Shown: in pieces, positions 4,787 to 29,330 of the stretch
Position numbering within the stretch: position 1 is the first letter of the stretch
Layout of the letters: every line of letters begins with the position of its first letter
DNA from: a virus
Strand: one strand, 5' to 3'
Length of the DNA stretch: 64,000 nt
IMG/VR virus record: IMGVR_UViG_3300023718_000004
Coordinates: 12,819-76,818 of that record
Program-made: the position numbers and the translations under genes
The notes under the pieces: model-generated
What the model was told of the DNA's origin: nothing
The model's database searches: none
Seen by the model: only the letters and a program-made list of their open reading frames with translations

Positions 4787-4821
4787 AAATTCATATCTCC
4801 TTTATGATTTATTTTTTGGCA

Positions 4822-4858: not shown

Positions 4859-4899
4859 AAATTGCTTATTATGATTTTATATTATAGCATACGGCGAAA

Positions 4900-4926
4900 G
4901 TATCATTCAGTATATTATGGTATCAT
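4900..4926. promoter_or_regulatory. Conserved 28-bp motif, copy 1 (rc ATGATACC-N12-ATGATAC), upstream of the Rha operon
   Basis: Near-identical to the sequences at 19709-19736 and 29303-29330. Followed on the minus strand by a TATAAT-like box and a hairpin plus T-run (4822-4858) before the gene start. Confidence 0.5.
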
Positions 4927-5282: not shown

Positions 5283-5475
5283 AATCGCTCAAAATCAACA
5301 GTTTCATTGTCATAAATTGCTTGTTATATGCAAAGGAAAGGCTTTTCTCTTTGTCCATCTCTTCTGTGCTGTTAAATCCATACTGTTCCATGAAATCATC
5401 CACAAGAAACTTGATTTTATCAATAGTGTCCTCTACTTCGAACATTGTGTTTTCTCTATCCATATTTTCTTCCAT
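5224..5475 (-). CDS. Hypothetical protein
   Basis: 83-aa ORF in an operon context. Overlaps the HNH gene start, so the true start is uncertain. Confidence 0.3.
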   Translation of the reverse strand: MEENMDRENTMFEVEDTIDKIKFLVDDFMEQYGFNSTEEMDKEKSLSFAYNKQFMTMKLLILSDYAWKAKQAFKALKSMEQKA

Positions 5476-5511
5476 TTTATTTTCCTCCTGTGTATCCCTG
5501 TAAAAATCTAA

Positions 5512-6333: not shown

Positions 6334-6457
6334 ATAGAAAATCCTCCTGTTGTTAAAAAATCTATTTGCAAACAGGGGATATACAGTGTTATAATTTGCA
6401 TATCCCCTGTAGGGGGTGTTGTATAAGGGACTGTTTCTTTCCTAGGGAGCCAGTTCC

Positions 6458-6670
6458 TTATTTTTCGCCTATTTCATCTTCTATTAGACCGATTCCTTTC
6501 ATAATGGTGTCCGTTCTTGAAATTCCAAGTTCTTCTGCACATTTGTCTATGCGTCCTTTTTCTTCTTTTGTAAGACGAATATTGAGCTTTTCCTTTCTTG
6601 ATTCACCATTTACAGGTGGTCTACCTGTTCTTGGGGACATTTTGTTCACCTCCTTATTTTGTCCTTGCAT
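6458..6670 (-). CDS. Ribbon-helix-helix (CopG/Arc-like) DNA-binding protein
   Basis: NIRLTKEEKGRIDKCAEELGISRTDTIMKGI fits a beta-strand plus two-helix RHH pattern. Confidence 0.5.
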   Translation of the reverse strand: MQGQNKEVNKMSPRTGRPPVNGESRKEKLNIRLTKEEKGRIDKCAEELGISRTDTIMKGIGLIEDEIGEK

Positions 6671-7388
6671 AATTCGTTATAATTTATGGTCGTACAAAAG
6701 TCAAGAGCATTTTCTATTATTTTAGAAAACGTATCAATCAAGGTTCTCGTCATTATGACGAACACCTTTTCGCTAAAATTTTAGTAGAATTGGCTTCCAC
6801 AAAATAATGGAGCCGAAATTTCGGCGGCTTATTCACTGTCGAATTTTCGACAGTGTGCGTCTCGTCTTTTAGGAAGAGTCGCAGTTAGCCGAAGTAAAAT
6901 TGACTTTGGTGATTGAAGCATCCACTTTTCCGCATGAATGCGGAGTCACTAGTCATTGTGGCGAACCTAGGACAAATTGTCCGAAATGCTAACCGTCATC
7001 AAATTGATGATAGTTCAAAATATCAATCATAGAAGTAGGGTGCATCAAATTAGAAGCACCCCTATTAAAAATAAAAGGTGTCGAAATTTCTACGCCTTTT
7101 CGCCATGTATGGCTAAAACCCATATAAGCTGCTCAAATTTGTGCACCTTGTATGAATAAACAGTTTGCCATAGTAACGAAAGGTCAATTTGTCCGTTCGC
7201 TTCTCATTGCGAAAAACAGCTCCATAAATTTGTGGAACAGCTATTAACCGTCTTGAAATTCACGACAGTTTTTTACTGACGATTCGTCATTTTGATGAAT
7301 CGTTATTTTTTTTCAAATTTCCTATTCCACTATCCGTTTTGGAGTGGTAAAATACAAATATCATACTGATTTAGGGAGGAAAACGCAT
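6671..7388. promoter_or_regulatory. 700-bp ORF-free divergent intergenic region densely packed with short perfect palindromes or hairpins
   Basis: cgtcat-t-atgacg, gccgaaatttcggc, ccgcat-ga-atgcgg, gacaa-a-ttgtc, tcatcaa-a-ttgatga, gggtgc...gcaccc, gacga-t-tcgtc. No coding potential. Confidence 0.4.
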
Positions 7389-8285
7389 ATGAAAAAATCC
7401 AAAAAGTTACTGGCAATTTTTACCATTATGTTACTGATTGTCTGTATGGCAGTTCCAGTATCGGCGGCTGGTAAAATCAACAAGAAAAAAGCCACTTTGA
7501 AAGTCGGTCAAACATTACAATTAAAAGTAACTGGAACAAAAGGAAAAGTAAAATGGACAAGTAGCAAAAAATCTGTTGCTACGGTATCTTCTAAAGGACG
7601 TGTAAAAGCGAAAAAGAAAGGTTCCGCTACAATTACCGCAAAGATTGGTAAAAAGAAATATACCTGTAAAGTTACTGTGAAAAAGGCTTCTAATGGCAAT
7701 GGCGGTTTTGGTGGAAATCCAAATGCTAACAGCAGTGGTAAAAAGAATGTTGTTAGTTATCATGCAGAATCTACGCCGTATGGAGCTGTGGCAATTCTGG
7801 AAAACCATTATGACCATGCAGTTGATCTGACCGTTGAATTTATCTATTATCTGAATGGAACAATGGTCGGAGTTGATAAGGATTATAATTTTGCGTTTGC
7901 AGCACATTCAAAATGTGCACTTCAAGGCTGGAATTCTGATAAAACGTGGGATTCTTTTAAAATCAATTTGAATATTAAGAAAGCATCTTCAAGTGTTATA
8001 ACAAATAACTCGGGAATTCATTATTCAGCCAATTTTGGAAATAGAAATGTAGTGGTAAAAGTAGATAACAATGGACGGAAAAATGCGTTTACCACTATTG
8101 CAATTGTATTTTATAAAAATGGTAGGATAGTGGGGTATGATGATCGTAATGCTGATGTAAAAAATCCAGGATCGACAGCTTATCTCGAATTTGATTTTCC
8201 ATTTGATAGGAATTTCGAGGATATCATACCAGATAAATTTGAAGTATATGTAAATGATTCGTATACATATAGCTGGATGAATTAA
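7389..8285 (+). CDS. Secreted Big_2 (bacterial Ig-like) domain protein
   Basis: GGGAGG RBS. Signal peptide MKKSKKLLAIFTIMLLIVCMAVPVSAAG. Big_2-like segment LKVGQTLQLKVTGTKGKVKWTSSKKSVATVSSKGRVKAKKKGSATITA. Confidence 0.7.
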   Translation: MKKSKKLLAIFTIMLLIVCMAVPVSAAGKINKKKATLKVGQTLQLKVTGTKGKVKWTSSKKSVATVSSKGRVKAKKKGSATITAKIGKKKYTCKVTVKKASNGNGGFGGNPNANSSGKKNVVSYHAESTPYGAVAILENHYDHAVDLTVEFIYYLNGTMVGVDKDYNFAFAAHSKCALQGWNSDKTWDSFKINLNIKKASSSVITNNSGIHYSANFGNRNVVVKVDNNGRKNAFTTIAIVFYKNGRIVGYDDRNADVKNPGSTAYLEFDFPFDRNFEDIIPDKFEVYVNDSYTYSWMN

Positions 8286-8292
8286 GATAAAA

Positions 8293-8322
8293 GGCTAGGG
8301 AGAAATCCCTAGCCGATTTTTT
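8293..8322. terminator. Bidirectional rho-independent terminator between convergent genes
   Basis: ggctaggg-agaaat-ccctagcc stem-loop followed by gatttttt. The reverse complement reads as hairpin plus ttttat. Confidence 0.55.
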
Positions 8323-9066
8323 CTACTTATCGTATGTTCTATGTTCAAACATTACTTTTGTTCCAAATATATCTATATCATTTGCGCCTGTATATAACTC
8401 TTCGTATGTTCCATTCTGGTTATCTTCTGTTTCGTAAGTAAACTGAGTTATAAATTTATATGATACGTTATTCAATTCGTATTCTCCGCTGACTTCTGCT
8501 AAGCCATTGCAAGCTTTGAATGTGCATTTACTCTCATTTTCAGTTCCGATATTCAATGAAATGGATTTATCCAACTCGCTTTGTAATATTTCTTGCGTTA
8601 TCCTCATAAGGAAAGTACGTTCTTCATCAGAAAGTTCGTTTTCGGTTTTTATTATCCAAGGAAATCTCATTGATAAAGGATGATCGCTTGAGCTATTTAT
8701 TTTCGTTCCACTTTTTGTATCATAGACATTAGTTGACAATAAAAAACCAACATTTGAACTAATACCTATGCTACAAATAGTGGTATAGTCAAACCATTCC
8801 TGTGAAGACATATTCGCAAAAATTTCATCCATTTCCATAAAACTGACATTTACTTTAAATAAATCAGTTCTGACGATAAGTGTTTTATATTCCGTCCCTT
8901 CCGAATCTTTTCCGCTGTATTCTTCTGTATAAAATGCATTATCATCATTTTCATACTGTTGCAAAAATGTATTTACATCATCAATACTTGCTTTTACTGC
9001 GATAGGTGAAAAACATTCACATATTATTAATGTTGACGCAACAATAACTCTTTTCACTTTCTTCAT
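8323..9066 (-). CDS. Secreted protein or lipoprotein of unknown function
   Basis: N-terminal signal peptide MKKVKRVIVASTLIICECFS. 247 aa. Confidence 0.5.
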   Translation of the reverse strand: MKKVKRVIVASTLIICECFSPIAVKASIDDVNTFLQQYENDDNAFYTEEYSGKDSEGTEYKTLIVRTDLFKVNVSFMEMDEIFANMSSQEWFDYTTICSIGISSNVGFLLSTNVYDTKSGTKINSSSDHPLSMRFPWIIKTENELSDEERTFLMRITQEILQSELDKSISLNIGTENESKCTFKACNGLAEVSGEYELNNVSYKFITQFTYETEDNQNGTYEELYTGANDIDIFGTKVMFEHRTYDK

Positions 9067-9129
9067 ACACTCATACCTCCCAATAATTGATACCCATATT
9101 GTACCACCTTTGGACGTATTCTGGAAGCC

Positions 9130-9363
9130 CTATTTCGCTTTTCTGTCAATTTCCGCAGTTACGGCAAACAAAAGAGCTTCGGCAAATTTTGCGCCAACCG
9201 AATCGGAGTATTTATCGTGAATCCGGCTTGCTTCCATGGTGAGATTTTCCCACTGCGGAATATCGTCCTTTGAGATAAAAGCATACTTCTTGTGGAGATT
9301 CCATATATCTTGCCAGATGGAAAAGTAAGTCTGTTTAAAGTCCATCAGCGTAAAGAACCCCAT
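9130..9363 (-). CDS. Hypothetical protein
   Basis: 77-aa ORF in a co-directional cluster. Confidence 0.3.
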   Translation of the reverse strand: MGFFTLMDFKQTYFSIWQDIWNLHKKYAFISKDDIPQWENLTMEASRIHDKYSDSVGAKFAEALLFAVTAEIDRKAK

Positions 9364-9640
9364 GATATTTCTCGAACCTATGCTCTTGCTTTATTTCTGG
9401 GTATTTGTTCCAATCTACCTTGCTATAAAACATCTTTGTTGGCCTGGCAAATAGTTCCTTACCGCCATACAAAGCTCTGTATACTACCAAATCTTCCCCT
9501 GTTTCTGTATGTCTGGCATATCCGATAAACTTATACAAATACTCGTTGTTGCGTGGCTCCTTGATGGTTTCTCTCTTAAAGTGCTGTACAATGTCTCCTG
9601 GTTCAAATAATGGTCTATACATTTTCTTTCTCCTCCTCAC
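9335..9640 (-). CDS. DUF1653-like protein
   Basis: YKFIGYARHTETGEDLVVYRALYGGKELFARPTKMF resembles the DUF1653 core (HYKGgeY...hsET...vVvYralYgd..lwvRP..mF). Confidence 0.45.
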   Translation of the reverse strand: MRRRKKMYRPLFEPGDIVQHFKRETIKEPRNNEYLYKFIGYARHTETGEDLVVYRALYGGKELFARPTKMFYSKVDWNKYPEIKQEHRFEKYHGVLYADGL

Positions 9641-9897
9641 CCAGCTAAAAGAATATCTCCAGGATTAACTTCATGGAGTTTTGTTATCTCAACATCTTTC
9701 TTACTCTCCCCTTCCCAAATCAAGCCAAGGCTCAGAGCGATTCCTTTAGCTTCGTTTTCACTTCTGGCGCATACAAGCACATCATTAATACCCATATCGC
9801 ATTCTATTCTCTTTGTTCTTGAAACCAAGTAAAGATTCCCGTTTATTTCCATGCTAACGTCCTCCATAATTTGTTGACTTCTTCGCCCGAAAATCAA
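9637..9897 (-). CDS. Hypothetical protein
   Basis: 86-aa ORF whose stop overlaps the downstream start. Confidence 0.3.
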   Translation of the reverse strand: MIFGRRSQQIMEDVSMEINGNLYLVSRTKRIECDMGINDVLVCARSENEAKGIALSLGLIWEGESKKDVEITKLHEVNPGDILLAG

Positions 9898-9957
9898 TTT
9901 TATTGGCTTATGCCTATATTTTATAGTGTGAGTGGTTTTGTAGCGGATCCGGTTATT

Positions 9958-10590
9958 TTATCGCAGTAATTCTTTATCAATAATCTGGAAATTTGCCCTG
10001 TGGATATAAAGAGCTTTTCCGTCAATCATTAACTTTGTCATTTTAGGTAGATCGTCCGGGATTTTCCAGAACACCTCGTCACCAGAATATGCGGCTATCG
10101 GTTGTCCAAGTTGAGATTTGATTACTACAACCCTGGATTTCCCAAAATAATTTTTATAATAATTCACAATCCCGGCTATGTATGCATTCTCTGAAATCTT
10201 CCCGGTTGAATGGCTGGTAATATCTTCCTGGGTAAAATCAACCTCCGGCTCCAATCCTTTTTGCTCAAAAATACAAGTATCACCACAGCTTTCAATTTCT
10301 TTACCGTCAATCAGAATTGTAATAACGGAAGATACGTCATAGCTGGTTGTTTCGTTACCCTCGCTATCGTAGCCCTTGGATTTGGTTTTATTCCCGGCAA
10401 TGTTGATCTTGTCCCCAGTGGTGGTCATAACCTTCTGGCCGTAGTTATCATAGGTGTAGATTGTATAACTATTACCGGAAAGATTTCCTTTCACGTCATT
10501 CATGTAATCATCATTGGCTGCACAGCCTGTTAGCCCTGTGATAACGCAAATACAGATAATGGTTGCCAGTAGTGCTTTGATTCTTTTCAT
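9958..10590 (-). CDS. Lipoprotein (superinfection-exclusion candidate)
   Basis: Signal peptide with an LTGC lipobox (MKRIKALLATIICICVITGLTGCAAND). Translationally coupled to the upstream membrane protein. Confidence 0.55.
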   Translation of the reverse strand: MKRIKALLATIICICVITGLTGCAANDDYMNDVKGNLSGNSYTIYTYDNYGQKVMTTTGDKINIAGNKTKSKGYDSEGNETTSYDVSSVITILIDGKEIESCGDTCIFEQKGLEPEVDFTQEDITSHSTGKISENAYIAGIVNYYKNYFGKSRVVVIKSQLGQPIAAYSGDEVFWKIPDDLPKMTKLMIDGKALYIHRANFQIIDKELLR

Positions 10591-11039
10591 GGTTTTTGTC
10601 CTCCCTCATATGTCTCATAATCAATCGTTCCCAAATCACCGTACACATCTGGATAATAAATTCCAACCCAGAAGTTATCCTCCATTGCTTTGTAGTAAGT
10701 TACTTTTACATTCCATCTCTGTACCTCGTCAATAATTTCTTTGTTAAGAAGTCCGAATTGATCTCGGCAAGCTTCACTTTCCAGTTTGTAAGTCAATGCT
10801 TTGTATTTCTCGGCATTTGCCTGTCTGGTGGCGGTAACCGTAGTCTGGCTTATTGCTAAAAGCAATCCAGCGATCAAAAGATATACCGCACCGATAAAAG
10901 CCACTGCTACGCCCAAAACAAGCACGGTTGCGCTCACATTCGAATACTCATATTCGTAGCTTAAAGATTCTCCTATTCTATTTGCAATCAGAATAACAAC
11001 GCCGACTGCAAAAATGATTATTGATAGCCAAAATATCAT
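10587..11039 (-). CDS. Integral membrane protein (two predicted TM helices)
   Basis: IIIFAVGVVILIANRIG and VLVLGVAVAFIGAVYLLIAGLLLAI hydrophobic segments. Start and stop overlap with the lipoprotein gene. Confidence 0.5.
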   Translation of the reverse strand: MIFWLSIIIFAVGVVILIANRIGESLSYEYEYSNVSATVLVLGVAVAFIGAVYLLIAGLLLAISQTTVTATRQANAEKYKALTYKLESEACRDQFGLLNKEIIDEVQRWNVKVTYYKAMEDNFWVGIYYPDVYGDLGTIDYETYEGGQKP

Positions 11040-11095
11040 AGTGTGTCCTCCCTTTTCTCATTCTGCGTCAGATTTATCTGACATAATAATATCGT

Positions 11096-11232
11096 TAGAT
11101 ATTATTCAAAATATAATTCTTTCTCTTTTTCTTAATCTAAATCTATATCTAAATCTATATCTTAATCTAAACCTTTATCTAAACCTTAATCTGAGTGCGT
11201 CTACTATGCGTCTTTTGTGCGTCTAAAAAAAT
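11096..11232. repeat. Iteron cluster, second (oriR-like) copy of the replication-origin repeats
   Basis: About 12-bp ATCTAAATCTAT-type direct repeats followed by ATCTGAGTGCGTCT and TGCGTCTTTTGTGCGTCT. About 170 bp are homologous to 48200-48372, which lies inside the replisome organizer gene. Confidence 0.6.
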
Positions 11233-11241
11233 TAATTTATT

Positions 11242-12459
11242 TTAAGGTCTAAAATCATGCTTTTTTCTTTCCTCGCTTTCATATTCTGCACATTTTTCGG
11301 CGCAAATAGTCCCTCCACAGGAAAACATAGCTTCTGGCATTTGCACTTTTTCATCATATTCTTTGCCTAATTTAAGCATTGAAAACATATTACCATAGTC
11401 TTCTCTAGTAACACAATTTGACCAATATTTATTTGACGCATAATGATTTAAAAGTCTTAATCCTTGTTCGGTAGTTAAAACTGGGTGAGGTTCATTGTAT
11501 GTTTGATAGTATTCCCTGTAATATTCTCTTAGCAATTCTGTGAAACCATTAAGGTACGGAATTAAGCTAACTCTATTTTGCGGCGAATATCTTTCAGAAA
11601 AGAAATATCCATTATTTTCTAAATCAAGCCCATATTTAATATTTTTTATGCTCTTTTCGCCGTCAATATCTAGTATTCCTACAAAACATTTATCCATCAT
11701 ATAGTTTTGTGCAAATTTATCCTTATCAAATTTAACGCTTGGATATTTGACAAATATCTTCAAATACCGTTTATTTTTCTTTTCCTCCGCAAAATCTTCT
11801 TCTGTGATTAAATATGTTTCAACATAATATTTTAAAAGTTTCGGATTAAACTCTATTCCTCGTGATGTTAAAACTTTCTTGATATAATTGAAATAATAAT
11901 TTGACTTATTATCCCCCTTTGAGTGATTAATACACACTCCTGGTATTTTTGAAAATGCCATTACAATTTCATCGTATGAAAATTCTTTACAATATGATTT
12001 TACGGATTTTTCCATTGCGTCCATAATTTTATCTGCTGAAAATCTTTTCAACCAGATTCCTATTTCTTTGCGTCCGTTATCGTTTACATCACACCCTGTC
12101 AATTGTTCAAAATATTCGGTTAGCATGTTTACTGCCATATTATCATAATCGAGTAGCTCTTTCTTCCATTCAGCAATCATTTCCAACTGTTCTTTTTTCT
12201 CTGCAAGATCTTTTAATGCTTCCTGTTGTAATGATATTGCTTTGGAATCTGAAATTCTAGTTTTGCCTTTTCCTCTATTACAATCGCGACACGAAGTAAT
12301 TAAATTTGTAATCTCATTATCTCCGCCCTCTGCTACTGGCTCAATATGGTCTACTTCCAAAATTACGTCTGGTGACATTCGTCCACAATATTGACATGTG
12401 AATTTGTCTCTTTTGAATACTTCAAATCTGATTTTCTTGCTAAGTGGTTTTCTTGCCAT
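11242..12459 (-). CDS. HNH-domain protein with a large C-terminal domain of unknown function
   Basis: N-terminal CQYCGRMS...VDHIEPVAEGGDNEITNLITSCRDCNRGKG HNH motif. 405 aa. The iteron cluster sits immediately downstream. Confidence 0.55.
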   Translation of the reverse strand: MARKPLSKKIRFEVFKRDKFTCQYCGRMSPDVILEVDHIEPVAEGGDNEITNLITSCRDCNRGKGKTRISDSKAISLQQEALKDLAEKKEQLEMIAEWKKELLDYDNMAVNMLTEYFEQLTGCDVNDNGRKEIGIWLKRFSADKIMDAMEKSVKSYCKEFSYDEIVMAFSKIPGVCINHSKGDNKSNYYFNYIKKVLTSRGIEFNPKLLKYYVETYLITEEDFAEEKKNKRYLKIFVKYPSVKFDKDKFAQNYMMDKCFVGILDIDGEKSIKNIKYGLDLENNGYFFSERYSPQNRVSLIPYLNGFTELLREYYREYYQTYNEPHPVLTTEQGLRLLNHYASNKYWSNCVTREDYGNMFSMLKLGKEYDEKVQMPEAMFSCGGTICAEKCAEYESEERKKHDFRP

Positions 12460-12721
12460 AGATTAATACCTGCCTTTCGTATAAAAGAGTGCCTTGAACT
12501 GTATGTAAATCAACAGGCAGGCGGCAAGGCATTTCCGCTTTTCGATGATCGGTCTAGCCTGTTGGTTTTACCAAAATTAACGGTTAAAATAAAAAAGAGC
12601 CGCCAAGTAAGATAAAAATTCCTCAAAATCGAGAAATGTTAATTTCTTCTTAGCGGCTCAAAAATTCAAGACCGTGTGTACTTCTTCATTGAAAAAATTA
12701 TACCACACAATCAGTCAAAAA

Positions 12722-18943: not shown

Positions 18944-19174
18944 CTACTCTTCTTTGTCTGTTTTCAGTTCTGGTAATCCTGCTACAGATGTAAGCAGTGA
19001 TAAAAATCCAGAAAGCAAAGATGCAGATAGAACCATTTTCCAGTCAACACTGCCAATTACAGTTGCGGTTCCGATGGTTGCTACCGCTGTTTGTGCGACT
19101 GTTTTTACAGCTCTAATTCCTGCGGCTTTCAGCCAAAGTAATTTATCTGCTTTCATTCGGCATTCTCCTTTCAT
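18944..19174 (-). CDS. Small two-TM membrane protein (holin-like)
   Basis: 76 aa with two hydrophobic helices. Position among tail genes is atypical. Confidence 0.3.
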   Translation of the reverse strand: MKGECRMKADKLLWLKAAGIRAVKTVAQTAVATIGTATVIGSVDWKMVLSASLLSGFLSLLTSVAGLPELKTDKEE

Positions 19175-19739: not shown

Positions 19740-20291
19740 TCAAGAAGAGAACACCTCTTTGGCGATTTTGCGGATATTCTGAATGATTTCTACGCTTGCC
19801 TTATACATTGGCATTGTAGCTTCTGTACCGTAAGAACGTACCCATTCGCCAGAATCAGATACATATACCCAGGAATCGTTTTTTCCTTTTCCTTGTCCGT
19901 AAGAACCGATTATATAACCAAATTCTTCTCCTTTTGGATGCGGACTAGAACCGGCTGCACCATTGTAGTGAATACCTGCACCGAATTCTATAAACAAAAG
20001 GTCTATTCCTTCACATATTAAATGAGCTTCTGCATAGTCCCCAAAACTGTTGATTTTGATATAAGTATTATGGTTCTTATCAGAATCGCCTTGTGCTGCC
20101 AAAATATTTTGGTCAATGACCGGAATCCCTAATTCACATAATCTTTTTATGAAGATTTCATTTTTATTCCTTAAAGATTTTTGATAATTTTTTATTTCAT
20201 CAATAGCTTTTTGGATTGATTTCTGTGATAAGGTACACTTTATTGTCTTACCCATCTTCGTTTCCTCTCTTAGAAATTCCGTATCTGGCAA
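19740..20291 (-). CDS. Hypothetical head-tail/neck protein
   Basis: 183 aa in the neck gene block. Confidence 0.3.
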   Translation of the reverse strand: MPDTEFLREETKMGKTIKCTLSQKSIQKAIDEIKNYQKSLRNKNEIFIKRLCELGIPVIDQNILAAQGDSDKNHNTYIKINSFGDYAEAHLICEGIDLLFIEFGAGIHYNGAAGSSPHPKGEEFGYIIGSYGQGKGKNDSWVYVSDSGEWVRSYGTEATMPMYKASVEIIQNIRKIAKEVFSS

Positions 20292-20640
20292 TATTGCCTT
20301 TTTGTGTGTCTAAAATCTTCTTTAGTGTGTAGTCTGGTAATACTGTTGGCTCTCCATTTTCATCCAAAATAAGGTTTCCATCCTCGCTTATTTGTGGGAT
20401 TCTATCTATCCAAAATATGTCCGCTTCCTGTGGATGAAAATTTCGATTAAAGCTTGTAATATACCTGTCGTAATCTGGCACTATTCCGGCTGCAATTTCT
20501 TCCGGCGTTCCAGCAGTGGATGATACGGAAAAAGAGTATAAAACTGGTTTCTCATAAACTTTAATACGGTCTAATCCTTGTGTTTTCTCAGATATTCGTG
20601 ACCAATATACCTTTTGCTTTTGACGGACTAATCCTCTCAT
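20248..20640 (-). CDS. Head-tail joining/adaptor-like protein
   Basis: 130 aa. Position and size fit a neck protein. Confidence 0.3.
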   Translation of the reverse strand: MRGLVRQKQKVYWSRISEKTQGLDRIKVYEKPVLYSFSVSSTAGTPEEIAAGIVPDYDRYITSFNRNFHPQEADIFWIDRIPQISEDGNLILDENGEPTVLPDYTLKKILDTQKGNIARYGISKRGNEDG

Positions 20641-21023
20641 GCAATCATCCTTTCTGCTCTAACAGGGGCTACATATGTGAATTGGTTTCCCAAAATATCT
20701 CTGGCCGTACCAATCACGAAATGGCCGTAGTCTGCCAGAATATTGCATACAAATTCCTCTGCGTCCACCCAATATCGTTTCTTGACCATGCGGTGAAGCT
20801 CTGGCAGTAAACCATAGCTGAACATCACGCAATGACCTAATTCATGGATAAATACACGGTTCAGAAGTTCTCCATACAGGTTGTTTGCGATTGAAATTAT
20901 CTTTGTTGAATAATCCGATACCGCAAGAGTTCTTTCGCCTGTGCGGTCAATTAACACGCTGTCGTGCGGAGATACGAACTGCACTCTCCATAGGTCTCCG
21001 TTCATATAAAATTGTCTTAGCAT
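20637..21023 (-). CDS. ImmA/IrrE-family (DUF955) HExxH metallopeptidase
   Basis: NRVFIHELGHCVMFSYGL carries the HELGH zinc-binding motif typical of ImmA/IrrE. Confidence 0.6.
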   Translation of the reverse strand: MLRQFYMNGDLWRVQFVSPHDSVLIDRTGERTLAVSDYSTKIISIANNLYGELLNRVFIHELGHCVMFSYGLLPELHRMVKKRYWVDAEEFVCNILADYGHFVIGTARDILGNQFTYVAPVRAERMIA

Positions 21024-21041
21024 GGCTTATCACCATCCATT

Positions 21042-21374
21042 TCAAATTAACTCAAGTTCTTTGAATACTTCAAAAATCTTCGGAGATTGAATCGCAAACC
21101 AATCAACTGTGGTTTCATCATGTCCGAACTGTTCCATATGTTGCCAATTGCACTGCAATCCACTTTCCGACAAGAATGCATGAATAATTTCGTGTCTCAA
21201 CTGCTTTTTCTGTAAGAAGTCAAAATCACCAACGTTATTTACGTTGTCCGTTCTGATAACAATTTCCTTTGCAGTATTATCTGTAAAGCCGTCAATATCT
21301 GCATTTTTAAGTTCTTTTGGAATAATTCTGTAATTCGTTCCAAGAACATTTATTACACATTTTTCCATCATCAA
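21042..21374 (-). CDS. Second HExxH metallopeptidase-like protein
   Basis: LRHEIIHAFLSE HExxH motif. Adjacent to the ImmA-like gene. Confidence 0.45.
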   Translation of the reverse strand: MMMEKCVINVLGTNYRIIPKELKNADIDGFTDNTAKEIVIRTDNVNNVGDFDFLQKKQLRHEIIHAFLSESGLQCNWQHMEQFGHDETTVDWFAIQSPKIFEVFKELELI

Positions 21375-21434
21375 TCTCCCTAATTAAAAAGCCCCTGCTA
21401 CATTCCTGTAACAAGGGCAAAATTCATTTCATAT

Positions 21435-22061
21435 TCAATTCATCTGCTGTATCAGACGAGTTAAGTCGGTTTTCATCGACTGTCTAAGAGTCGCATCTGC
21501 ATCTGACCACATCTCTGTAAGATTTCTGACGATATCGGATGTATATTCTTTCATAGAATCATCCATCTTACGCTTGGAATCAGAATCTTTGGAATCATGG
21601 TAATGTCTGCGGTTCTCGCTGTATCTGTCATAGCTTTCACCATATCTGGACTGCTTATGGTTCATTCCATCCATTCTCATATCACTACGGTCTGGATGAT
21701 AACCCATGCGGTACATATTACGTTCGAACTCTGGATTGTTCAGATACTCGTCCATCCAGTCATCATCTTCCATGTACAGATATGGTTTATATCCCATACG
21801 ACTTCCTTTGCCTTTCGGGGCAAATCTGCCGTTTGCGTAACGATACCTGTCATATCCCATGCGACCAAGATATTTCTCTTCCTGTTCGCATTCGTCCATA
21901 GCTTCTACGATTCTGTAATCTTTATCTGCACAAATCGCACACTTTACAGCTTCCATGCAGTCTTTCAAATCGTCCCAGTCTTGAGCGCTGAGATTATCAA
22001 AGCCATGTGTTTTGGCTTTTTCCATAGCCCATTTTCCCATTTCCATTGCTGTCTTATGCAT
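21435..22061 (-). CDS. Repeat-containing acidic protein (RMGY repeats)
   Basis: GRMGYDRYRY, SRMGYKPY, YRMGYHPDR repeats. Low-complexity D/E/R/Y-rich. Confidence 0.4.
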   Translation of the reverse strand: MHKTAMEMGKWAMEKAKTHGFDNLSAQDWDDLKDCMEAVKCAICADKDYRIVEAMDECEQEEKYLGRMGYDRYRYANGRFAPKGKGSRMGYKPYLYMEDDDWMDEYLNNPEFERNMYRMGYHPDRSDMRMDGMNHKQSRYGESYDRYSENRRHYHDSKDSDSKRKMDDSMKEYTSDIVRNLTEMWSDADATLRQSMKTDLTRLIQQMN

Positions 22062-22485
22062 TCACGATACCTCCCCTCTTCGAAGCCTGTACAACATTTT
22101 CTGCTGTTGGGGCTGTACCATTGATTGCAGTCAGATTGTTATTCGGACTACATGCCGGATTTCCTAACATTTTGAACGCTCCACCAGTAGCACTTGTTGC
22201 AACTCTGGTTGCATATTTTGTTCTGGTTCTTACGCCACAAGCTGTTACCTGTGCGCAACAACGATTCTCCAATGGATATAAAGTTGTTCCTGTTCCTATC
22301 TGAATCATCACTGGGGCGGTAATTGTGGTTGTATTCGGAATAGACTGTGCTAAAACAATGCAGTATTTTTCTCCATTATTGTAGCTTCCTTCCGGGATAG
22401 TAACCACAAGATTTCCACCTGTGAATGCAATCGCAGTAGACATCACAAGGTGATTGCAAAGCTTACAAACATTCTTACATGCCAT
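22054..22485 (-). CDS. Cys-rich, Thr/Val-rich small protein
   Basis: MACKNVCKLCNH... N-terminal Cys cluster and RCCAQVTACG. Beta-rich composition reminiscent of self-assembling spore-appendage or coat-type subunits. This is a speculative comparison. Confidence 0.4.
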   Translation of the reverse strand: MACKNVCKLCNHLVMSTAIAFTGGNLVVTIPEGSYNNGEKYCIVLAQSIPNTTTITAPVMIQIGTGTTLYPLENRCCAQVTACGVRTRTKYATRVATSATGGAFKMLGNPACSPNNNLTAINGTAPTAENVVQASKRGGIVNA

Positions 22486-22563
22486 ATCTTTTACCTCTCA
22501 ATCAATAAGAGGTGAGCCGAAACCCACCTCTTAGAATTTAGTCAACCTCTAAGGGTGAGTTAC

Positions 22564-23370
22564 TTAGCAACAACCATTACCATATGTGCTACATCCTGCG
22601 TACGCATATGGAGCCGGAACCTGGAATGCAGGAATCGGAGCCGGATTGATTGCATTGATTAACTGCTGTGTCTGAGAAGCCATTGCAGTTGTGAGCAATG
22701 CAGACTGGCGATCCTGGGATGCAGCACGCTTCAGATCAGAATTCTCTGCCTGTAATGTTGCAATCTTATCCTGAGTTAAAAAGTCTAACAGCGCACGAGT
22801 GTTGCTGTTCTGATTTTCCAGAATGTCTCTGGTGTTGTTGTTCATTGTGTTCTGCAATGCACAAGTGTTGGTAGCCAGATTGTAATTTACGCCCTGGATA
22901 GCTTCTCTGGTCTCGCAGCAACAGTTCTGGAGCTGTGCCTGTAATGCATTGGTATTCTGCATACCGGCTACAGTATCAGCATTGATTGCCTGCTGAATTC
23001 CGTTGAATCCTTGAAGCATTCCAACATTCACGCCGTTGAAACCGCTCTGCATGGTATTGTTAAGCGCATATGTGCTATCGCAAATACCCTGCTGAATACC
23101 TCTAATACCATTCTGAATATCATTCAGAGCAAAGCCCTCATTGATATCTGCTCTGGTAGCCCATCCTTGGAAACCTGCACCATTTGTACCGTTTCCACCA
23201 TTGCCGCCCCAGCCACCAAAGCCGCCGAAACCGCCCCAGCCGAAGATTGCAAAAATAAGGACAAGCCAGATAAGGGAAAAACCATCGCCGCCCCACATGT
23301 CGTTTGCACGGTTATTAGAGCCTGTAGCGGCTGCAATGTCGCTAAGACTATAATTTGAACCATTCATCAT
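22564..23370 (-). CDS. Gly/Asn/Gln-rich single-TM protein with Cys clusters
   Basis: TM helix FSLIWLVLIFAIFGW followed by GGFGGFGGWGGNGGNG, then N/Q-rich coiled-coil-like segments, a CCCE stretch and a C-terminal YGNGCC. Confidence 0.45.
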   Translation of the reverse strand: MMNGSNYSLSDIAAATGSNNRANDMWGGDGFSLIWLVLIFAIFGWGGFGGFGGWGGNGGNGTNGAGFQGWATRADINEGFALNDIQNGIRGIQQGICDSTYALNNTMQSGFNGVNVGMLQGFNGIQQAINADTVAGMQNTNALQAQLQNCCCETREAIQGVNYNLATNTCALQNTMNNNTRDILENQNSNTRALLDFLTQDKIATLQAENSDLKRAASQDRQSALLTTAMASQTQQLINAINPAPIPAFQVPAPYAYAGCSTYGNGCC

Positions 23371-23464
23371 GTTTTTAGTCTCCTTAAATTTTATTTACAA
23401 TAGGAGACATCCGCGGCTGTCATCCCAAATTGTAGCGATTTTAAATCACCCAATTATGGGGAAG

Positions 23465-23713
23465 TTATTTCATCCCTAAAAATTTTTCCAAAATTCCTTC
23501 GGGAGAAAAATTCTTTTCTTTAAATATATTTTGCTGAACTTGGTGTAATTGTTCTGTATCACCATGTTTGTATAAATCCAAAGCATTTTTCAATGTTGGA
23601 TTGTTACCTGCAAATTTACTCATATCGTTCATCATGTTATCAACACTTCCGAACCTCTGAGAAATCATTTGCTGAATTTTTTGTTTCATTATTGTGTTTG
23701 GGTTGAAATTCAT
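23465..23713 (-). CDS. Hypothetical protein
   Basis: 82 aa, coupled to the upstream ORF. Confidence 0.35.
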   Translation of the reverse strand: MNFNPNTIMKQKIQQMISQRFGSVDNMMNDMSKFAGNNPTLKNALDLYKHGDTEQLHQVQQNIFKEKNFSPEGILEKFLGMK

Positions 23714-24198
23714 CTCTGATTACCTCCCTTCTGTGTCTTGGGCGGTTCAGATTGTATTGGCAATAATTCTTTAATTTCGGAAATCTCTGCGTGAACATCA
23801 TCACGAAGTTGGTTAATCAGCGAAACAATATCAACTTGATTTGTCTTATTGCTTTCTGGTTGTTCTCCTTCATTTACAAGTCTATAAGTGAAAATTCGGC
23901 TTCTGCCATCTGCCTGTAACTGTTTTCGGTAAACTTCTGTACCGTCAGTTTTTGGATAATAAACAGGGTTTCCAGACATATCTACGTCTTTCGCCTTTAC
24001 AGTATCAATACCGTCAACCATCTGTCCTTGCAACATGGGGATTTGTGGTACTTGTGGCATTTGTTGTATTGGTTGCTGAATCTGTGCCTGTCCGTATGGC
24101 ATTGCCTGCTGATAACTGTTCTGTAATTGTGCTAATCTATCTTGATACGGCTGTATTTGTTGAAATGGTTGCGCAAAATACGGATTACCATACTGCAT
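23710..24198 (-). CDS. Gln/Pro-rich protein
   Basis: N-terminal QPFQQIQPYQ...QQPIQQMPQVPQIP low-complexity region, then a globular domain. Confidence 0.4.
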   Translation of the reverse strand: MQYGNPYFAQPFQQIQPYQDRLAQLQNSYQQAMPYGQAQIQQPIQQMPQVPQIPMLQGQMVDGIDTVKAKDVDMSGNPVYYPKTDGTEVYRKQLQADGRSRIFTYRLVNEGEQPESNKTNQVDIVSLINQLRDDVHAEISEIKELLPIQSEPPKTQKGGNQR

Positions 24199-24288
24199 AT
24201 CTCAAACCTCCCTTGTTTTTATAACTATATTTTACAATAATAAGAGGTTGATTAACACGCCACGATAACGCCATAAATACGCCACGTT

Positions 24289-24588
24289 TTATGAATACAA
24301 AGAAAAGCCCCGACAATACATCGGGGCGACTTTCATAATTTTCTTCTTTAATTTTCTGTTTATGCGGTCTACGGTTCTTGTGCTGTAGCCCATGATTTCT
24401 GAAGCTTCTGCAAGTGTTTTTTCTTCGTAAACACGCAGTCGAAATAACTCTTTTTCTCTGGAATCAAATCCAGCTTCACGCAAATAGAAGATTCTTTCAT
24501 CTTCCGAAAAGTCTTTATAATTATCCATTCCACCGTCCTCCCTGTTAGTGGAATCAATATTACACCGGGAAAATGCCTTTAAGAGCAA
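24289..24588 (-). CDS. Sigma-70 region-4-like HTH regulator (ArpU/late-regulator-like)
   Basis: EKELFRLRVYEEKTLAEASEIMGYSTRTVDRINRKLKKK resembles sigma region 4 (ECF) HTH. Confidence 0.5.
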   Translation of the reverse strand: MLLKAFSRCNIDSTNREDGGMDNYKDFSEDERIFYLREAGFDSREKELFRLRVYEEKTLAEASEIMGYSTRTVDRINRKLKKKIMKVAPMYCRGFSLYS

Positions 24589-24871
24589 AACCTAAAACAA
24601 TACCAATTATTCCAGTTATGACATAAGCAATAATTTTGTCCTGTAATTTTCCTGGCTTTTCCATGAGTGATTTTAAATTGTCGTTCATTTCGTCAACTGT
24701 ATCTTTGATGTGTCCCAGATCGTTGTTGTATAAAGCAATTTTCTGTTCTAGCACATTGATACGATTAAAAAAGCCTTCATCCCTTTTGGAATGCTTTTCT
24801 TTCATCTCATGGACGGCACTTTCCAATTCTTTCAAGCGGTGTTCGTTGATACACTCGTGTTCACATCCCAT
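24560..24871 (-). CDS. XhlA-like protein (coiled coil plus C-terminal TM)
   Basis: N-terminal coiled coil (LKELESAVHEMKEKH...) and C-terminal TM IIAYVITGIIGIVLGFAL, the PBSX XhlA architecture. Confidence 0.45.
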   Translation of the reverse strand: MGCEHECINEHRLKELESAVHEMKEKHSKRDEGFFNRINVLEQKIALYNNDLGHIKDTVDEMNDNLKSLMEKPGKLQDKIIAYVITGIIGIVLGFALKGIFPV

Positions 24872-24979: not shown

Positions 24980-25300
24980 TTAGAATCCGATAAATGGAAA
25001 AACACCATGATTTACATAAATTTCAGTTTCGGAAGTCCAATTTCTGTTTACAGAAGATTCGGAATGTGATCCTTGAAATTCAGCTCCCTGTTTCACCAGA
25101 AAGAAAAGAGCCAAATCAAATATGCAATCATAGCAGTTTTCCATATCGGAATTTATTTTCTCATCACTGTAGGATGAAGGATAATTCCTTTTCTTCTTAA
25201 ATGAACGAATAGCCCTCTCTGCTGAAAGAGGAATCATCCTCGCTGTTTCTGCATCATCTTCAAGATAATTTGTCAAATCTTCTATAAGCTGTTCGTCCAT
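24980..25300 (-). CDS. Head-tail connector protein (gp6-like)
   Basis: MDEQLIEDLTNYLEDDAETARMIPLSAERAIRSF matches the Phage_connect_1 N-terminal pattern. Lies downstream of the capsid gene. Confidence 0.6.
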   Translation of the reverse strand: MDEQLIEDLTNYLEDDAETARMIPLSAERAIRSFKKKRNYPSSYSDEKINSDMENCYDCIFDLALFFLVKQGAEFQGSHSESSVNRNWTSETEIYVNHGVFPFIGF

Positions 25301-25508
25301 TTAATCACCTACCTTTGCTGAGATAAAATCTCTGATATTATTCCAGCCTTATTAGTTGCTGTCAGGGCATAGCCGTTATCACTTGCAAGTTGTCTTAACT
25401 GTGATACAGTCATATTAGACAACTCGCTTTCTGTATACTTATGTGTCGATTCGTCATAAACACTCGCTACAGATGGTGACTGGCTGTTTTCATCGAGACT
25501 ATGCCCGG

Positions 25509-26546
25509 TTATTCCCCCGCCTTGGTACCGATAACGATACCGCCGTTAGCTTTTGGTGCAACAGGAACAAACATACCGGATGCTTTTGTCCATACTGCAA
25601 CTGGGTCTGGTGTAGCCCACATGGAAAGAGTAACAAAGGAACGATTCTCTTCCTGGATAAACTGTCTGTATTCAAGTTCTTCTGGTGTTACGCCCCAAAG
25701 ACCGGAACCAAAGGAACCATTTGCATTTGCTTCATACAGAGTAAATACATCTTCTTTGAAGTATCTTCCTGTTTTCAGAGTTCCGTCTGCTTTTCTGTAA
25801 CGATATTTTTCATCGCAGCGATCAATTGTGATTCCGTACTCCTGCATAAGCAGATTTGTAAGCTCCTGTTTTGTCAGAAGACGTTTGTTTGCAGCTCCAA
25901 GAACCGCGGTCTGCATTGCAGTATTGCTTCTCATGTAGTTAATCATTTTAAGAGAAGTAAGAGCTTTGTTTACCACGAAACCATTGTCTTCTGCGACGGC
26001 AACCATCTTCTGGATATCACCCATGATATCTGCATCCGGTTTAGACCAGTCTGTCATTGTTACTTTTGCACTGGACGGTACGCCGTAATCAATGCTCATA
26101 TCCACATGATTTTCCTTGATTTTTACAATACCAGTGGAAAGGAACTGGCCTTTCATTACATTCGCCCTTGCGACTACGCCCTCAAAAAGATTGGCTGCAT
26201 CATCAAATACGAATTTTTTGAGATTATTGTCATCTGGAACACCATTTTCAATCGCTTGCTGTAATCGCTCAGACTGATTGATTTTTCTCTTGATGAAAAG
26301 CTTCTCGGTCAGTACCTTTTCAAAACCAGGTCTGGAACCAATTTCTGCTTCGGTATCAAGTGCATGAACAAAAGCTACCTCTGGCAGTCTTTGTCCAGCC
26401 ATAAGTCTGTAGTATTCAGCTTTCAAATACTGTGTTTTTGTATCTGGGAAAATGGTACCGAGGATACCAGGTCTTTTTACATCAAAGCTCTGGGAGAAAT
26501 TAAGTCTCTCTTCCTCTGTGATTGTTTCTAATACATTAAATGGCAT
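25509..26546 (-). CDS. Major capsid protein (lambda gpE-like)
   Basis: 345 aa preceded by a decoration-like gene and scaffold. Size and synteny fit the Phage_cap_E family. Confidence 0.75.
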   Translation of the reverse strand: MPFNVLETITEEERLNFSQSFDVKRPGILGTIFPDTKTQYLKAEYYRLMAGQRLPEVAFVHALDTEAEIGSRPGFEKVLTEKLFIKRKINQSERLQQAIENGVPDDNNLKKFVFDDAANLFEGVVARANVMKGQFLSTGIVKIKENHVDMSIDYGVPSSAKVTMTDWSKPDADIMGDIQKMVAVAEDNGFVVNKALTSLKMINYMRSNTAMQTAVLGAANKRLLTKQELTNLLMQEYGITIDRCDEKYRYRKADGTLKTGRYFKEDVFTLYEANANGSFGSGLWGVTPEELEYRQFIQEENRSFVTLSMWATPDPVAVWTKASGMFVPVAPKANGGIVIGTKAGE

Positions 26547-27735: not shown

Positions 27736-29229
27736 TCATTCTTCGTTAGATGGAGAATTTGCCATTGGTTCTGTTTTGGACGGATTCTGAAATTTTTCAT
27801 CCAGTAGTTGTTGAGCTTTCTTCATTTCCGCTTCCGGGTCTGCCAGTTCCGGGTAAATAGTTCCCAGATACGGTAAACTCATTTCGTAGACTTTCTGCGG
27901 ATCACTAAATAGCCCACAAGTAATCAGTGCGATAAGCGGATGGATTTTATTTTTGAACAGATAATCAAGTGCTTGTGCTTTTACAAGCATATTGTCTGTT
28001 GGGTTTCTGGTTATCTTTACATCGAAATCTCGAGTTGAGATATTAACATCATTTGATGTACCACGGATAATATTCAGAATAATTCTAGCAGATTCCTTTT
28101 CGGCTTCCTTGGTGAATGCTTCTACCAATTTTGCATCTCTCTCTGCGAAGTCCCATCCATTACGAAGGTATACGGCATTTCCTGTATCTCCTCCGCTATT
28201 GCTTTGTCGGTTTGGCATTGCTTCCACAATCAGCATATTATTGTAGATATCATCCTTTGCAACCTGGCTCTCTGATTGATTCAGTTCAGCGGTCATAAGT
28301 TCAACATCCGACTGACAGCCATTTCCAGTGTCTTTAACAGAGATAGCACCAAGTTTTACCATTTTCAAAAACTCGTTTTCGTCTACCTCGCAGTTTTTAA
28401 ATTTCATAAAGGCTTGCACAAACTGTTCCACGCCATTTAATCTATCAGACTGGTATTTGTTGATTGCATCAAATAAGGTGATTGCAATTTCAACGTCTGA
28501 TAGTCTGTCGTGATTATTCGGGCATTCAACAATAGGAATCCCGCCAAAACCATTGATGCCGTAGTTGGTTACTTTTCCATTCTTGATTTCAAAAAACTGG
28601 TTCTTTGAATAACATAAATAATATTGCTGTTCGTCTTCATCCTTTAAAATCTGAACGGACAGCATTGGTTTCCCGTTTCTCTGCGAATATACAATGTAAC
28701 AATCACCTGGATATGGGATGAAAATTCTAAACGGTGGTAAATCTCCGTTTTCTGTCCAGTCCTCTTCTTTCAGAATAGCCTTATAAGAAGTTCCTGTTGC
28801 ACTCTGGTATATTGCCCTTTGGATGTTTCTTGCATCTGCATTGGCTTCATCCAAATAGTCATTCAGAAGGTCAACTTGCTCATTTATTTTTTCATCTGCA
28901 TTTTTCTTTTTACATACATATTGAATTGGCTCCCCACAAATCTGTCCAGCTTTAAATTTTACAGTTTCAAACGCGTGATTTTCAACCACTCTGTTATTAA
29001 CTTCTGGACGGACTATTTTGTTTCGGTATAATATCGGCTGATCGCCTTTCATGTACCGATACAAGTAATCAATTAATGTTCGGTTTCTATTATGTATGCC
29101 AATTGTATCTGATACTACTTTTACTACATTTTGTGGAGTGATTCGGTCAACGCCTGTGTAGGCCACTTTTCGCCCGAACTCACCTCGGCATAAATCTACA
29201 AAATTCATTGTATTTCTCACGAGCCGAAC
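27736..29229 (-). CDS. Portal protein (SPP1 Gp6-like)
   Basis: About 497 aa downstream of terminase. YRNKIVRPEVNNRVVENHAFETVKFKAGQICGEPIQY resembles the SPP1-type portal. Start is uncertain (29229 or 29205); the ORF-track start at 29310 falls inside the regulatory motif. Confidence 0.75.
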   Translation of the reverse strand, partial: VRLVRNTMNFVDLCRGEFGRKVAYTGVDRITPQNVVKVVSDTIGIHNRNRTLIDYLYRYMKGDQPILYRNKIVRPEVNNRVVENHAFETVKFKAGQICGEPIQYVCKKKNADEKINEQVDLLNDYLDEANADARNIQRAIYQSATGTSYKAILKEEDWTENGDLPPFRIFIPYPGDCYIVYSQRNGKPMLSVQILKDEDEQQYYLCYSKNQFFEIKNGKVTNYGINGFGGIPIVECPNNHDRLSDVEIAITLFDAINKYQSDRLNGVEQFVQAFMKFKNCEVDENEFLKMVKLGAISVKDTGNGCQSDVELMTAELNQSESQVAKDDIYNNMLIVEAMPNRQSNSGGDTGNAVYLRNGWDFAERDAKLVEAFTKEAEKESARIILNIIRGTSNDVNISTRDFDVKITRNPTDNMLVKAQALDYLFKNKIHPLIALITCGLFSDPQKVYEMSLPYLGTIYPELADPEAEMKKAQQLLDEKFQNPSKTEPMANSPSNEE

Positions 29230-29240
29230 CATCCTTTCTG

Positions 29241-29276
29241 AAAAATAAAAAGCACTGGATATTTTAATCCAATGCT
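29241..29276 (-). terminator. Leader terminator-like hairpin plus U-run between the motif and the portal start
   Basis: Minus-strand GCATTGGATTAAAATATCCAGTGCTTTTTATTTTT. Confidence 0.45.
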
Positions 29277-29302
29277 CTACTTTATATTTTACACATATTG
29301 GC

Positions 29303-29330
29303 GGTATCATTCAGTATACTTCGGTATCAT
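29303..29330. promoter_or_regulatory. Conserved 28-bp motif, copy 3, upstream of the portal/head operon
   Basis: GGTATCATTCAGTATACTTCGGTATCAT. Reverse complement is ATGATACC-N12-ATGATACC. Confidence 0.5.

Follow-up and report, generated by a model that had tools for sequence, protein, structure and literature searches.

A mobile gene cassette of gut phages forms the core of a composite block between viral head-tail genes

The virus of IMG/VR record IMGVR_UViG_3300023718_000004 contains a block of nine genes among its head-tail genes, at positions 20637-24871 of the 64,000-nucleotide stretch analysed here (positions 12,819 to 76,818 of the record; this whole stretch is termed the window). This locus raises the question of whether such a block belongs to virion assembly or is cargo, and, if it is cargo, of what kind. 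A preliminary description, made from the letters of the window alone, regarded the nine genes as non-core genes that interrupt the head-tail morphogenesis module. The analysis reported here indicates that the nine-gene block is made up of three units, with terminator-like hairpins between them, and that its central five-gene operon is a widespread mobile late-region cassette of gut phages. The block can be classed with the morons, the known cargo blocks of late operons, but its set of genes has not been described before.

The nine open reading frames (ORFs) of the block are co-directional on the minus strand, as are all the genes of the head-tail region of the window and the control elements described below. 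Each ORF is confirmed at its coordinates, and every motif and compositional feature attributed to the block in the preliminary description is present. In the order of transcription, the block is preceded by the genes for the portal protein (27736-29310), the scaffold, a decoration-like protein and the E-type major capsid protein (MCP; 25509-26546), and by c106 (106 amino acids, 24980-25300). It is followed by n130 (130 amino acids, 20248-20640), n183 (183 amino acids), n152 (152 amino acids), an r1t-type holin-like gene, and the genes for the major tail protein, the chaperones and a 1607-amino-acid tape measure protein. The upstream flank, c106, is a putative first head-tail joining (connector) gene that comes after the MCP gene, as in Enterococcus phage phiEf11 and in the faecal contig MT835513, and the downstream flank, n130, is a putative second one; both roles are assigned from position only. 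No family match is found in Pfam or PHROG for c106 or the neck genes, and the labels "gp6-like connector" and "neck" given to them earlier reflect gene order only.

The MCP of the window is 44.5% identical to that of MT835513 and 32% identical to that of phiEf11, and the decoration protein of MT835513 is 48% identical to its counterpart in the window. The head-tail genes of both of these relatives with related capsids are contiguous, with no gap after the capsid gene. Because these genes directly adjoin there, the block is an insertion relative to phiEf11 and MT835513. This comparison with related phages, which had been proposed as a check, supports the view that the genes are non-core and that they interrupt the head-tail module. 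The closer lineage of the virus is represented by 80 IMG/VR loci fetched with G268, the third protein of the five-gene operon, as the query, namely the phage's own contig and 79 relatives. The block is located at the same site, between the same two genes, in 79 of the 79 relatives, a count that is partly circular because of the G268 query. Across these relatives, R208 and C143 of the operon are 91% and 84% identical respectively, the MCP is 88% identical and the neck genes are 67-74% identical. G268 is 90% identical, but the loci were selected by their similarity to it. As judged from these identities, the core cassette proteins are under purifying selection and about as conserved as the capsid protein within the lineage.

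The three units of the block are encoded one after another. Unit 1 consists of an XhlA-like membrane protein and a small helix-turn-helix (HTH) protein of the sigma-70 region-4 type. Unit 2 is the five-gene operon (21435-24198), which encodes QP162, s82, G268, C143 and R208 in this order. Unit 3 consists of two HExxH mini-zincins of ~110-130 amino acids, H110 and H128. A terminator-like hairpin with a 9-bp stem, six GC pairs and a T-run is located at the 3' end of the HTH gene (24307-24327), and an equivalent hairpin is present in two other cassette loci (L001 and L003). A strong terminator-like hairpin with a 12-bp stem and six GC pairs, followed by TTTTT, is located after the R208 gene (21391-21418). 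Three TGGCGT direct repeats, 11 bp apart, are located between the HTH gene and the operon (24257-24284) and constitute a candidate operator for the HTH protein. The array occurs only once in the window, where none is expected by chance (100 shuffles), and is kept in close relatives, one of which has a fourth copy. A -10-like element read from the sequence, TGTAAAATA, is located upstream of the QP162 gene, 20 bp past the repeats (24228-24236), and comparable AT-rich elements come after the hairpin in L001 and L003. These promoter and terminator calls are consensus matches only.

All of the neck and tail genes are located downstream of both hairpins, so that late transcription must read through these hairpins or restart beyond them. 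Such an arrangement is as expected for a moron-type insert, morons being autonomous cargo units inside late operons, as in lambda and HK97. The block resembles phage morons in that it is an accessory block among conserved morphogenesis genes, is co-directional with them, is bracketed by hairpins and carries its own candidate promoter and operator. It is also variably present between conserved neighbours, since it occurs at this site in the lineage of the window and is missing there in MT835513 and phiEf11. It differs from morons in that it is much larger, with five conserved genes and a regulator, and in that the gene set itself is kept across thousands of phages of several host phyla, lytic phages included.

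The distribution of the cassette was surveyed by tblastn, in annotated phages, by a scan of one genome per species, and by applying family profiles to individual loci. A three-sequence G268 alignment was used as the query for the genome scan, eight diverse G268 sequences being too divergent for this purpose. The matches of the scan are prophages of Lachnospiraceae, Oscillospiraceae, Ruminococcus and other Clostridia, and tblastn detects homologues of G268 and C143 side by side in many phages. The components were counted in 54 diverse phage and prophage loci of Clostridia with enough flanking sequence. The QP family, the G268 family and a protein in the slot after G268 (26 of the C143 type and 28 BclA_C-like) are present in all 54, the s82 family, always encoded directly upstream of the G268 gene, is present in 46, and R208 (RMGY-type) is present in 39. 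The gene order of the cassette is fixed across the 54 loci.

The location of the cassette, in contrast to its gene order, is quite different in different phages. It follows lysis or receptor-binding genes in L001, L002, L005, L086 and L169, the carriers with this arrangement being bajarodcaudo virus 5, Dulem virus 36, Butyrivibrio phage Ceridwen, Clostridium perfringens phage CPD1 and MT835513. It is located between the MuF or portal gene and the scaffold or MCP gene in L003, L004 and about ten other loci (Dulem virus 35, bajarodcaudo virus 2 and about ten prophages), beside the integrase gene at the end of the prophage in at least ten loci, and between the head-tail genes in the lineage of the window. 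The five-gene operon is therefore a mobile cassette that is common in gut phages, and the combination of genes that had been considered unusual is not peculiar to the window. The G268 family comprises 1546 representatives at 50% identity (E<=1e-3), and the C143 family comprises 3232 homologues, none of which is named. No curated family is found in Pfam or NCBIfam for G268, C143 or the HExxH proteins, and no paper describing the cassette is found in the literature. In this respect the earlier view that the genes do not form a described module holds, since neither a curated family nor a described module covers them.

Homologues of G268 are also found in many crAss-like phages, in Bacteroides uniformis phage C3_41T2LP and in predicted Methanomassiliicoccales viruses. 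In the crAss-like and Bacteroides phages, G268 is followed by a small beta-rich protein containing cysteine, a protein with beta structure and a coiled coil, a short acidic and Arg-rich protein, and an HExxH protein. The full cassette is present in Butyrivibrio phage Ceridwen, which has been seen in the lytic cycle only. The carriers, lytic phages included, all come from gut, rumen or faecal sources. The function suggested by this distribution is one that is linked with the gut habitat or the lytic cycle.

The crAss-like G268 homologues, including that of L167 (cr116_1), carry the independently assigned public labels "spike protein/glycoprotein" or "outer capsid protein/viral fiber", which may be artefacts of a resemblance among helical rod regions and are not functional evidence. 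A protein of ~125 amino acids with an N-terminal cysteine (DC[TV]VRAI) and a later histidine, possibly a papain-like peptidase, is encoded beside the cassette in 36 of 86 loci (for example, L133:4514-4894, L166:9388-9753, L005:6665-7042 and L169:22047-22445); it has no Pfam match and is absent from the window. The Pfam family DUF7841 also recurs beside the cassette, with E values of 5e-16 in Bacteroides phage C3_41T2LP and 2e-4 in a Clostridia prophage, where it is fused to an R/G/Y-rich region (L168:7021-7422 and L159:10605-11285); no mention of this family is found in the literature. The label "PolyVal metallopeptidase" attached to the homologue in the Bacteroides phage finds no support in Pfam.

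When all nine proteins of the block are compared with Pfam, PHROGs, NCBIfam and PADLOC, only the HTH protein, the XhlA-like protein and unnamed PHROGs give matches. QP162 (162 amino acids, 23710-24198; PHROG 21718, 1e-18), the product of the first core gene, contains 17% Gln and 9% Pro and consists of a Q/P-rich N-terminus, a small conserved beta domain and a C-terminal helix. R208 (208 amino acids, 21435-22061), the product of the last one, has acidic helical ends around an R/G/Y/M-rich repeat region, with RMGY at residues 67, 88 and 118. No relative of QP162 or R208 is found in Pfam or the PDB, the PDB profile searches of both families giving only noise, and hhalign detects no homology between R208 and the "Fer" type or between C143 and G268. 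The small protein s82 (82 amino acids, 23465-23713) is rich in Met, Gln and Asn, its family containing 11.6% Met and 27% Gln plus Asn on average. This composition recalls the Met-rich domains that shield hydrophobic segments, and a chaperone role of s82 is a lead from composition only.

G268 (268 amino acids, 22564-23370; PHROG 16490, 5e-69) consists of a hydrophobic and Gly-rich N-terminal anchor, a long N/Q-rich helical region and a Cys-rich C-terminus. The hydrophobic segment at residues 33-51 is followed by the Gly-rich tract GWGGFGGFGGWGGNGGNG, a CCC motif is located at residues 150-152, and GNGCC is located in the C-terminal region. The CCC motif is invariant in the alignment of the family. 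The family-averaged hydrophobicity has a period of 3.65 residues over positions 72-240, with a power of 67, as compared with a mean of 31 +/- 8.5 and a maximum of 75 in the shuffle control. This periodicity indicates that the region is probably a long amphipathic helix.

C143 (143 amino acids, 22054-22485) is predicted to be a Cys-rich beta-sandwich and has eight cysteines, including C3, C7 and C10. Its AlphaFold2 model was built with a mixed alignment from two homologue searches, a model from a shallow alignment being set aside for its low predicted local distance difference test score (pLDDT 46). The pLDDT of the model used is ~80-90 over residues 11-90 and 66-73 up to residue 110. In BFVD, the matches of the model outside its family are to the C-terminal domains of receptor-binding proteins and of tail and collagen-repeat fibres, with E values of 3e-4 to 1e-2 and TM-scores of ~0.41-0.47, and the model has neither a significant fold match in the PDB nor a match to Ena. 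The modelled fold thus resembles phage fibre tip domains, and not Ena pili. This resemblance agrees with the finding that the same slot is occupied elsewhere by a BclA_C-like protein, whose match to Pfam BclA_C (PF18573) has an E value of 4e-7 and a score of 30.3 bits, under the cutoff of 38. C143 itself has no Pfam match, and hhalign gives a probability of 0.8% for the comparison of the C143 family with the BclA_C-like family.

The small HTH protein of unit 1 (99 amino acids, 24289-24588) matches Pfam Sigma70_r4 (PF04545) over residues 42-79 with 29.1 bits, above the gathering threshold of 24.1, as expected from its earlier assignment as a sigma-70 region-4-like HTH protein. Its match to TIGR02937 is under the cutoff and covers only positions 110-163 of the 165 of the model. 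Because it contains region 4 only, with no region 2, this 99-amino-acid protein cannot be a sigma factor, and its earlier designation as a sigma-like factor is not borne out. It is likely to be a local regulator. An HTH protein of the region-4 type is encoded upstream of the cassette in 41 of the 54 loci.

The XhlA-like coiled-coil protein (103 amino acids, 24560-24871), which heads the block, matches PHROG 937, annotated as "hemolysin", over its full length (4e-14) and has a C-terminal transmembrane (TM) segment at residues 80-98; its score against Pfam XhlA, 15.8 bits, is under the cutoff of 34.7. Such a gene is present in 12 of the 54 loci. In MT835513, the same XhlA-like protein is followed by two holins and an endolysin, and then by the HTH protein and the cassette, an order that is reminiscent of the PBSX-type lysis cassette xhlA-xhlB-xlyA. 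The XhlA-like gene of the window differs from the first gene of that cassette in that no holin or lysin gene neighbours it, whereas such neighbours are present in L169. No endolysin is detected in the window when five lysins, two holins and the 125-amino-acid Cys/His protein of related loci are used as queries. The gene order in MT835513 suggests that the XhlA-HTH-cassette block of the window has moved from a lysis-proximal site into the head-tail region. The r1t-type holin-like gene (18944-19174; Pfam 1e-12, PHROG holin 1e-14) has the putative neck genes on one side and the major tail gene on the other, with no lysin nearby, and is detected in only 27 of the 79 relatives by tblastn.

The two proteins of unit 3 are mini-zincins as judged from their sequences. 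H110 (110 amino acids, 21042-21374; PHROG 1233, 3e-19) has HEIIH at residue 61 and is detected in 14 of the 79 relatives by tblastn. H128 (128 amino acids, 20637-21023) has HELGH at residue 60, and the last 4 bp of its gene overlap the start of n130. The H, E and H of the motif are invariant in 22 aligned members of the family, and conserved acidic residues follow it. The HExxH proteins are stand-alone, with 106-128 amino acids in members from Clostridia phages and 131-154 amino acids in members from crAss-like and Bacteroides phages, and the family has more than 7400 short homologues, two of which bear the source label DUF3920. When the family profile is compared with the PDB, the minigluzincin MJ1213 (0.003), IrrE (0.021) and an IrrE orthologue (0.048) are matched, and the best single-sequence match of H110 is CapP, which is not significant (E=0.32). 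No match to Peptidase_M78 of Pfam is found at E<=0.1. Of the earlier assignment of both proteins as ImmA/IrrE-like peptidases, the HExxH motifs are thus verified, but the M78 match is lacking and IrrE is only weakly indicated. The proteins resemble ImmA/IrrE (M78), CapP and minigluzincins (selecase MJ1213) in the invariant HExxH, the acidic residues after it, the size of ~110-130 amino acids and the stand-alone architecture, whereas they differ from ImmA/IrrE and CapP in that no gene for an XRE-type substrate is adjacent to them, their neighbours being R208 and n130. The only HTH protein is the region-4-type one, encoded 3 kb upstream across two hairpins. The pairing of the peptidases with this protein, which had also been proposed, is not obligate. 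The five-gene operon between hairpins separates them, and an HExxH protein is present in only 13 of the 54 loci, about seven of which (from a reading of the table) also have the HTH protein, as compared with 41 of 54 overall.

The following function is proposed tentatively, at somewhat less than an even chance: the cassette is an accessory module that builds a stalk-and-knob fibre or adhesin under a regulator of its own. G268 would be the stalk, with a hydrophobic and Gly-rich anchor and an amphipathic helical rod that is locked by CCC and by the Cys-rich tail. The interchangeable beta-sandwich, of the C143 family here and BclA_C-like elsewhere, would be the distal knob, and QP162, s82 and R208 may be assembly, chaperone or linker factors. 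The operon would be expressed in the late region, where the upstream region-4-type HTH protein probably controls it through the three TGGCGT repeats. The XhlA-like gene would have travelled with the cassette from its usual place beside the lysis genes, and the mini-zincins would be optional companions that may serve as maturation proteases. On this view, the virion, or possibly the envelope of the infected cell, would carry the product as an accessory adhesin or decoration that serves life in the gut rather than one host. Such a module recalls the BclA-type and phage collagen-like fibres, which have a stalk and a C1q/TNF-like knob, because the slot contains either a BclA_C-like protein or a beta-sandwich that matches fibre tips, and because the neighbouring gene encodes a long rod-like partner with Cys clusters. 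It differs from these fibres in that the putative stalk and knob are separate polypeptides, in that the stalk is helical and N/Q-rich instead of collagenous and starts with a TM-like segment, and in that C143 has no sequence homology to BclA_C.

Several findings weigh against this proposal. The hydrophobic segment of G268 looks like a genuine membrane anchor and the partner proteins have no signal peptide, so that a membrane or cytoplasmic complex fits at least as well as a capsid fibre, and the cassette is often located beside holin and endolysin genes. The types of the C-terminal tail of G268 do not co-vary with the type of the knob, which leaves a specific joint between stalk and knob unsupported, and the two types of knob share no detectable sequence homology. 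The predicted archaeal virus carries a G268 homologue only, and the number of promoter-like sites in this stretch of DNA, 19, is below the shuffle mean of 25.6. Virion proteomics or structures of carrier phages are not found in the literature. A broader form of the proposal is doubtful: the cassette would be a self-assembling system with a Cys-locked helical stalk, an exchangeable knob, low-complexity partners, an HTH switch and optional dedicated proteases, which is exchanged among viruses of Clostridia, Bacteroidota and possibly methanogenic archaea because it is useful in the gut, for example for adhesion, for protection or as a matrix released upon lysis, and is not host-specific.

The membrane anchor and the proximity to lysis genes could instead mean that the cassette is an accessory module for lysis or egress, in which G268, as a single-TM protein, modulates the holin, the timing of lysis or membrane disruption together with the XhlA-like protein and cytoplasmic partners. 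G268 would then recall the T4 holin T, in which a single TM segment is combined with a large domain that contains a disulfide. The location of the cassette directly downstream of holin or endolysin genes in L001, L005, L086, L169 and the crAss-like cr116_1, the XhlA-like gene at the head of the block, the one strong hydrophobic segment of G268, and a membrane target common to monoderm, diderm and archaeal hosts are consistent with such a role. It is unlikely, however, because five to seven genes including a fibre-tip-like knob and low-complexity proteins are unlike any known lysis cassette, and because the XhlA-like gene accompanies the cassette in only 12 of the 54 loci. Adjacency to lysis genes carries little weight, since the region after the lysin is a generic landing site for cargo in Firmicute phages, and in about ten of 86 loci the cassette has MuF or portal just upstream and scaffold or MCP just downstream, while in the lineage of the window it lies among head-tail genes, away from lysis genes. 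A membrane-anchored complex could also act in the infected or lysogenic cell, as a moron that excludes superinfecting phages, defends the cell or alters its surface; its own promoter would then be controlled by the HTH protein, with possible derepression by a zincin, as in CapH/CapP or ImmR/ImmA. The hairpins around the operon, the unique candidate repeat operator upstream of it and the integrase-adjacent position at the prophage end in at least ten loci would fit this explanation, to which the nonsignificant match of H110 to CapP may be added. However, PADLOC gives no defence match, with only coiled-coil noise for the XhlA-like protein, most cassettes lack an HExxH protein and only about seven of the 13 loci that have one also have the HTH protein. 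Furthermore, the cassette is always co-directional with late genes and is also present in phages that are seen only in the lytic cycle or thought to be virulent (Ceridwen and crAss-like phages). A function directed to the host cell is distinctly improbable.

That the nine genes encode normal, indispensable parts of the virion that are native to this position, such as head fibres or neck proteins, might be concluded from the presence of the block at the same site in all 79 relatives, from its conservation to the level of capsid proteins, and from the slot for fibre or depolymerase genes immediately downstream in relatives. The relatives were retrieved with a G268 query, however, so that the universal presence is partly circular, and the cassette is located at quite different sites in other phages, does not interrupt the head-tail genes of phages whose capsids are related, and forms part of a block with its own HTH protein, hairpins and TM proteins; this explanation has very little probability. 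The suggestion of a sigma- and peptidase-controlled cargo, with a role in modulating sporulation or in forming spore-coat or Ena-like appendages, is barely tenable. The composition of the proteins, rich in Cys, Gly, Gln and Tyr, is like that of coat proteins, BclA_C-like proteins occupy the knob slot of other cassettes, and many of the hosts are Clostridia. C143 shares with the subunits of Ena endospore appendages (DUF3992) the character of a small Cys-rich beta protein with an N-terminal Cys cluster. However, the searches with hidden Markov models give no match to DUF3992 or GerQ, those of the PDB give no match of C143 to the Ena fold of the solved fibres, G268 has no match to YjcZ in NCBIfam or Pfam, and the HTH protein has no sigma region 2. 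Homologues of G268 are present in crAss-like, Bacteroides and predicted Methanomassiliicoccales viruses and the full cassette is present in a lytic Butyrivibrio phage, in the paper on which the word "spore" is absent; the hosts of the Bacteroides, crAss-like, archaeal and Butyrivibrio viruses are not known to sporulate. Because of this host distribution, a spore-specific role is hard to reconcile with the data. Of the sporulation-modulating, surface-structure or toxin-like factors considered in the preliminary description, a surface structure is still plausible, whereas the link to sporulation fails.

Some features around the block may be described here. The junction of H128 and n130 (20637-20640) is hypervariable in the relatives L007-L085, where it forms a slot of 0-6.8 kb. 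The window has nothing in this slot, and neither have seven other loci, among them the phage's own contig. Where it is filled, the slot contains large fibre-like proteins with conserved N-termini and variable C-termini, one of them with a pectate-lyase-like domain (8e-18). A tyrosine recombinase (Phage_integrase, 9e-41) is present in 14 loci and a reverse transcriptase (RVT_1, 3e-8) in nine. These contents suggest that the slot holds exchangeable or diversifying receptor-binding genes. The morphogenesis operon of the window is interrupted a second time, over ~8.7 kb (4054-12721), between the tape measure gene, which ends at 12722, and the tail-tip genes, which encode a Dit-like DUF6711 protein (3661-4026) and a tail protein of at least 1220 amino acids that runs off the left edge (1-3660). 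This interruption contains genes for two HNH endonucleases, Ant/Rha-type anti-repressors and membrane or lipoprotein-like proteins, and a plus-strand immunoglobulin-domain gene (7344-8285). The 208-bp gap between the capsid gene and c106 contains a 34-codon ORF on the minus strand, MTVSQLRQLASDNGYALTATNKAGIISEILSQQR (25309-25413), which by eye is like a Rho-N/SAP-like helix-extension-helix, with a promoter-like site inside it (25365-25337).

The cassette is among the commoner unannotated gene sets in gut phages, crAss-like phages included. Butyrivibrio phage Ceridwen, C. perfringens phage CPD1 and B. uniformis phage C3_41T2LP are cultured carriers. The case also calls for caution, in that a coat-like composition of proteins in Clostridia phages does not amount to a link to sporulation. 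If the cassette does encode an accessory structure linked to the habitat rather than to the host, thousands of "hypothetical proteins" would gain names, and this structure would bear on the persistence and adhesion of phages in the gut.

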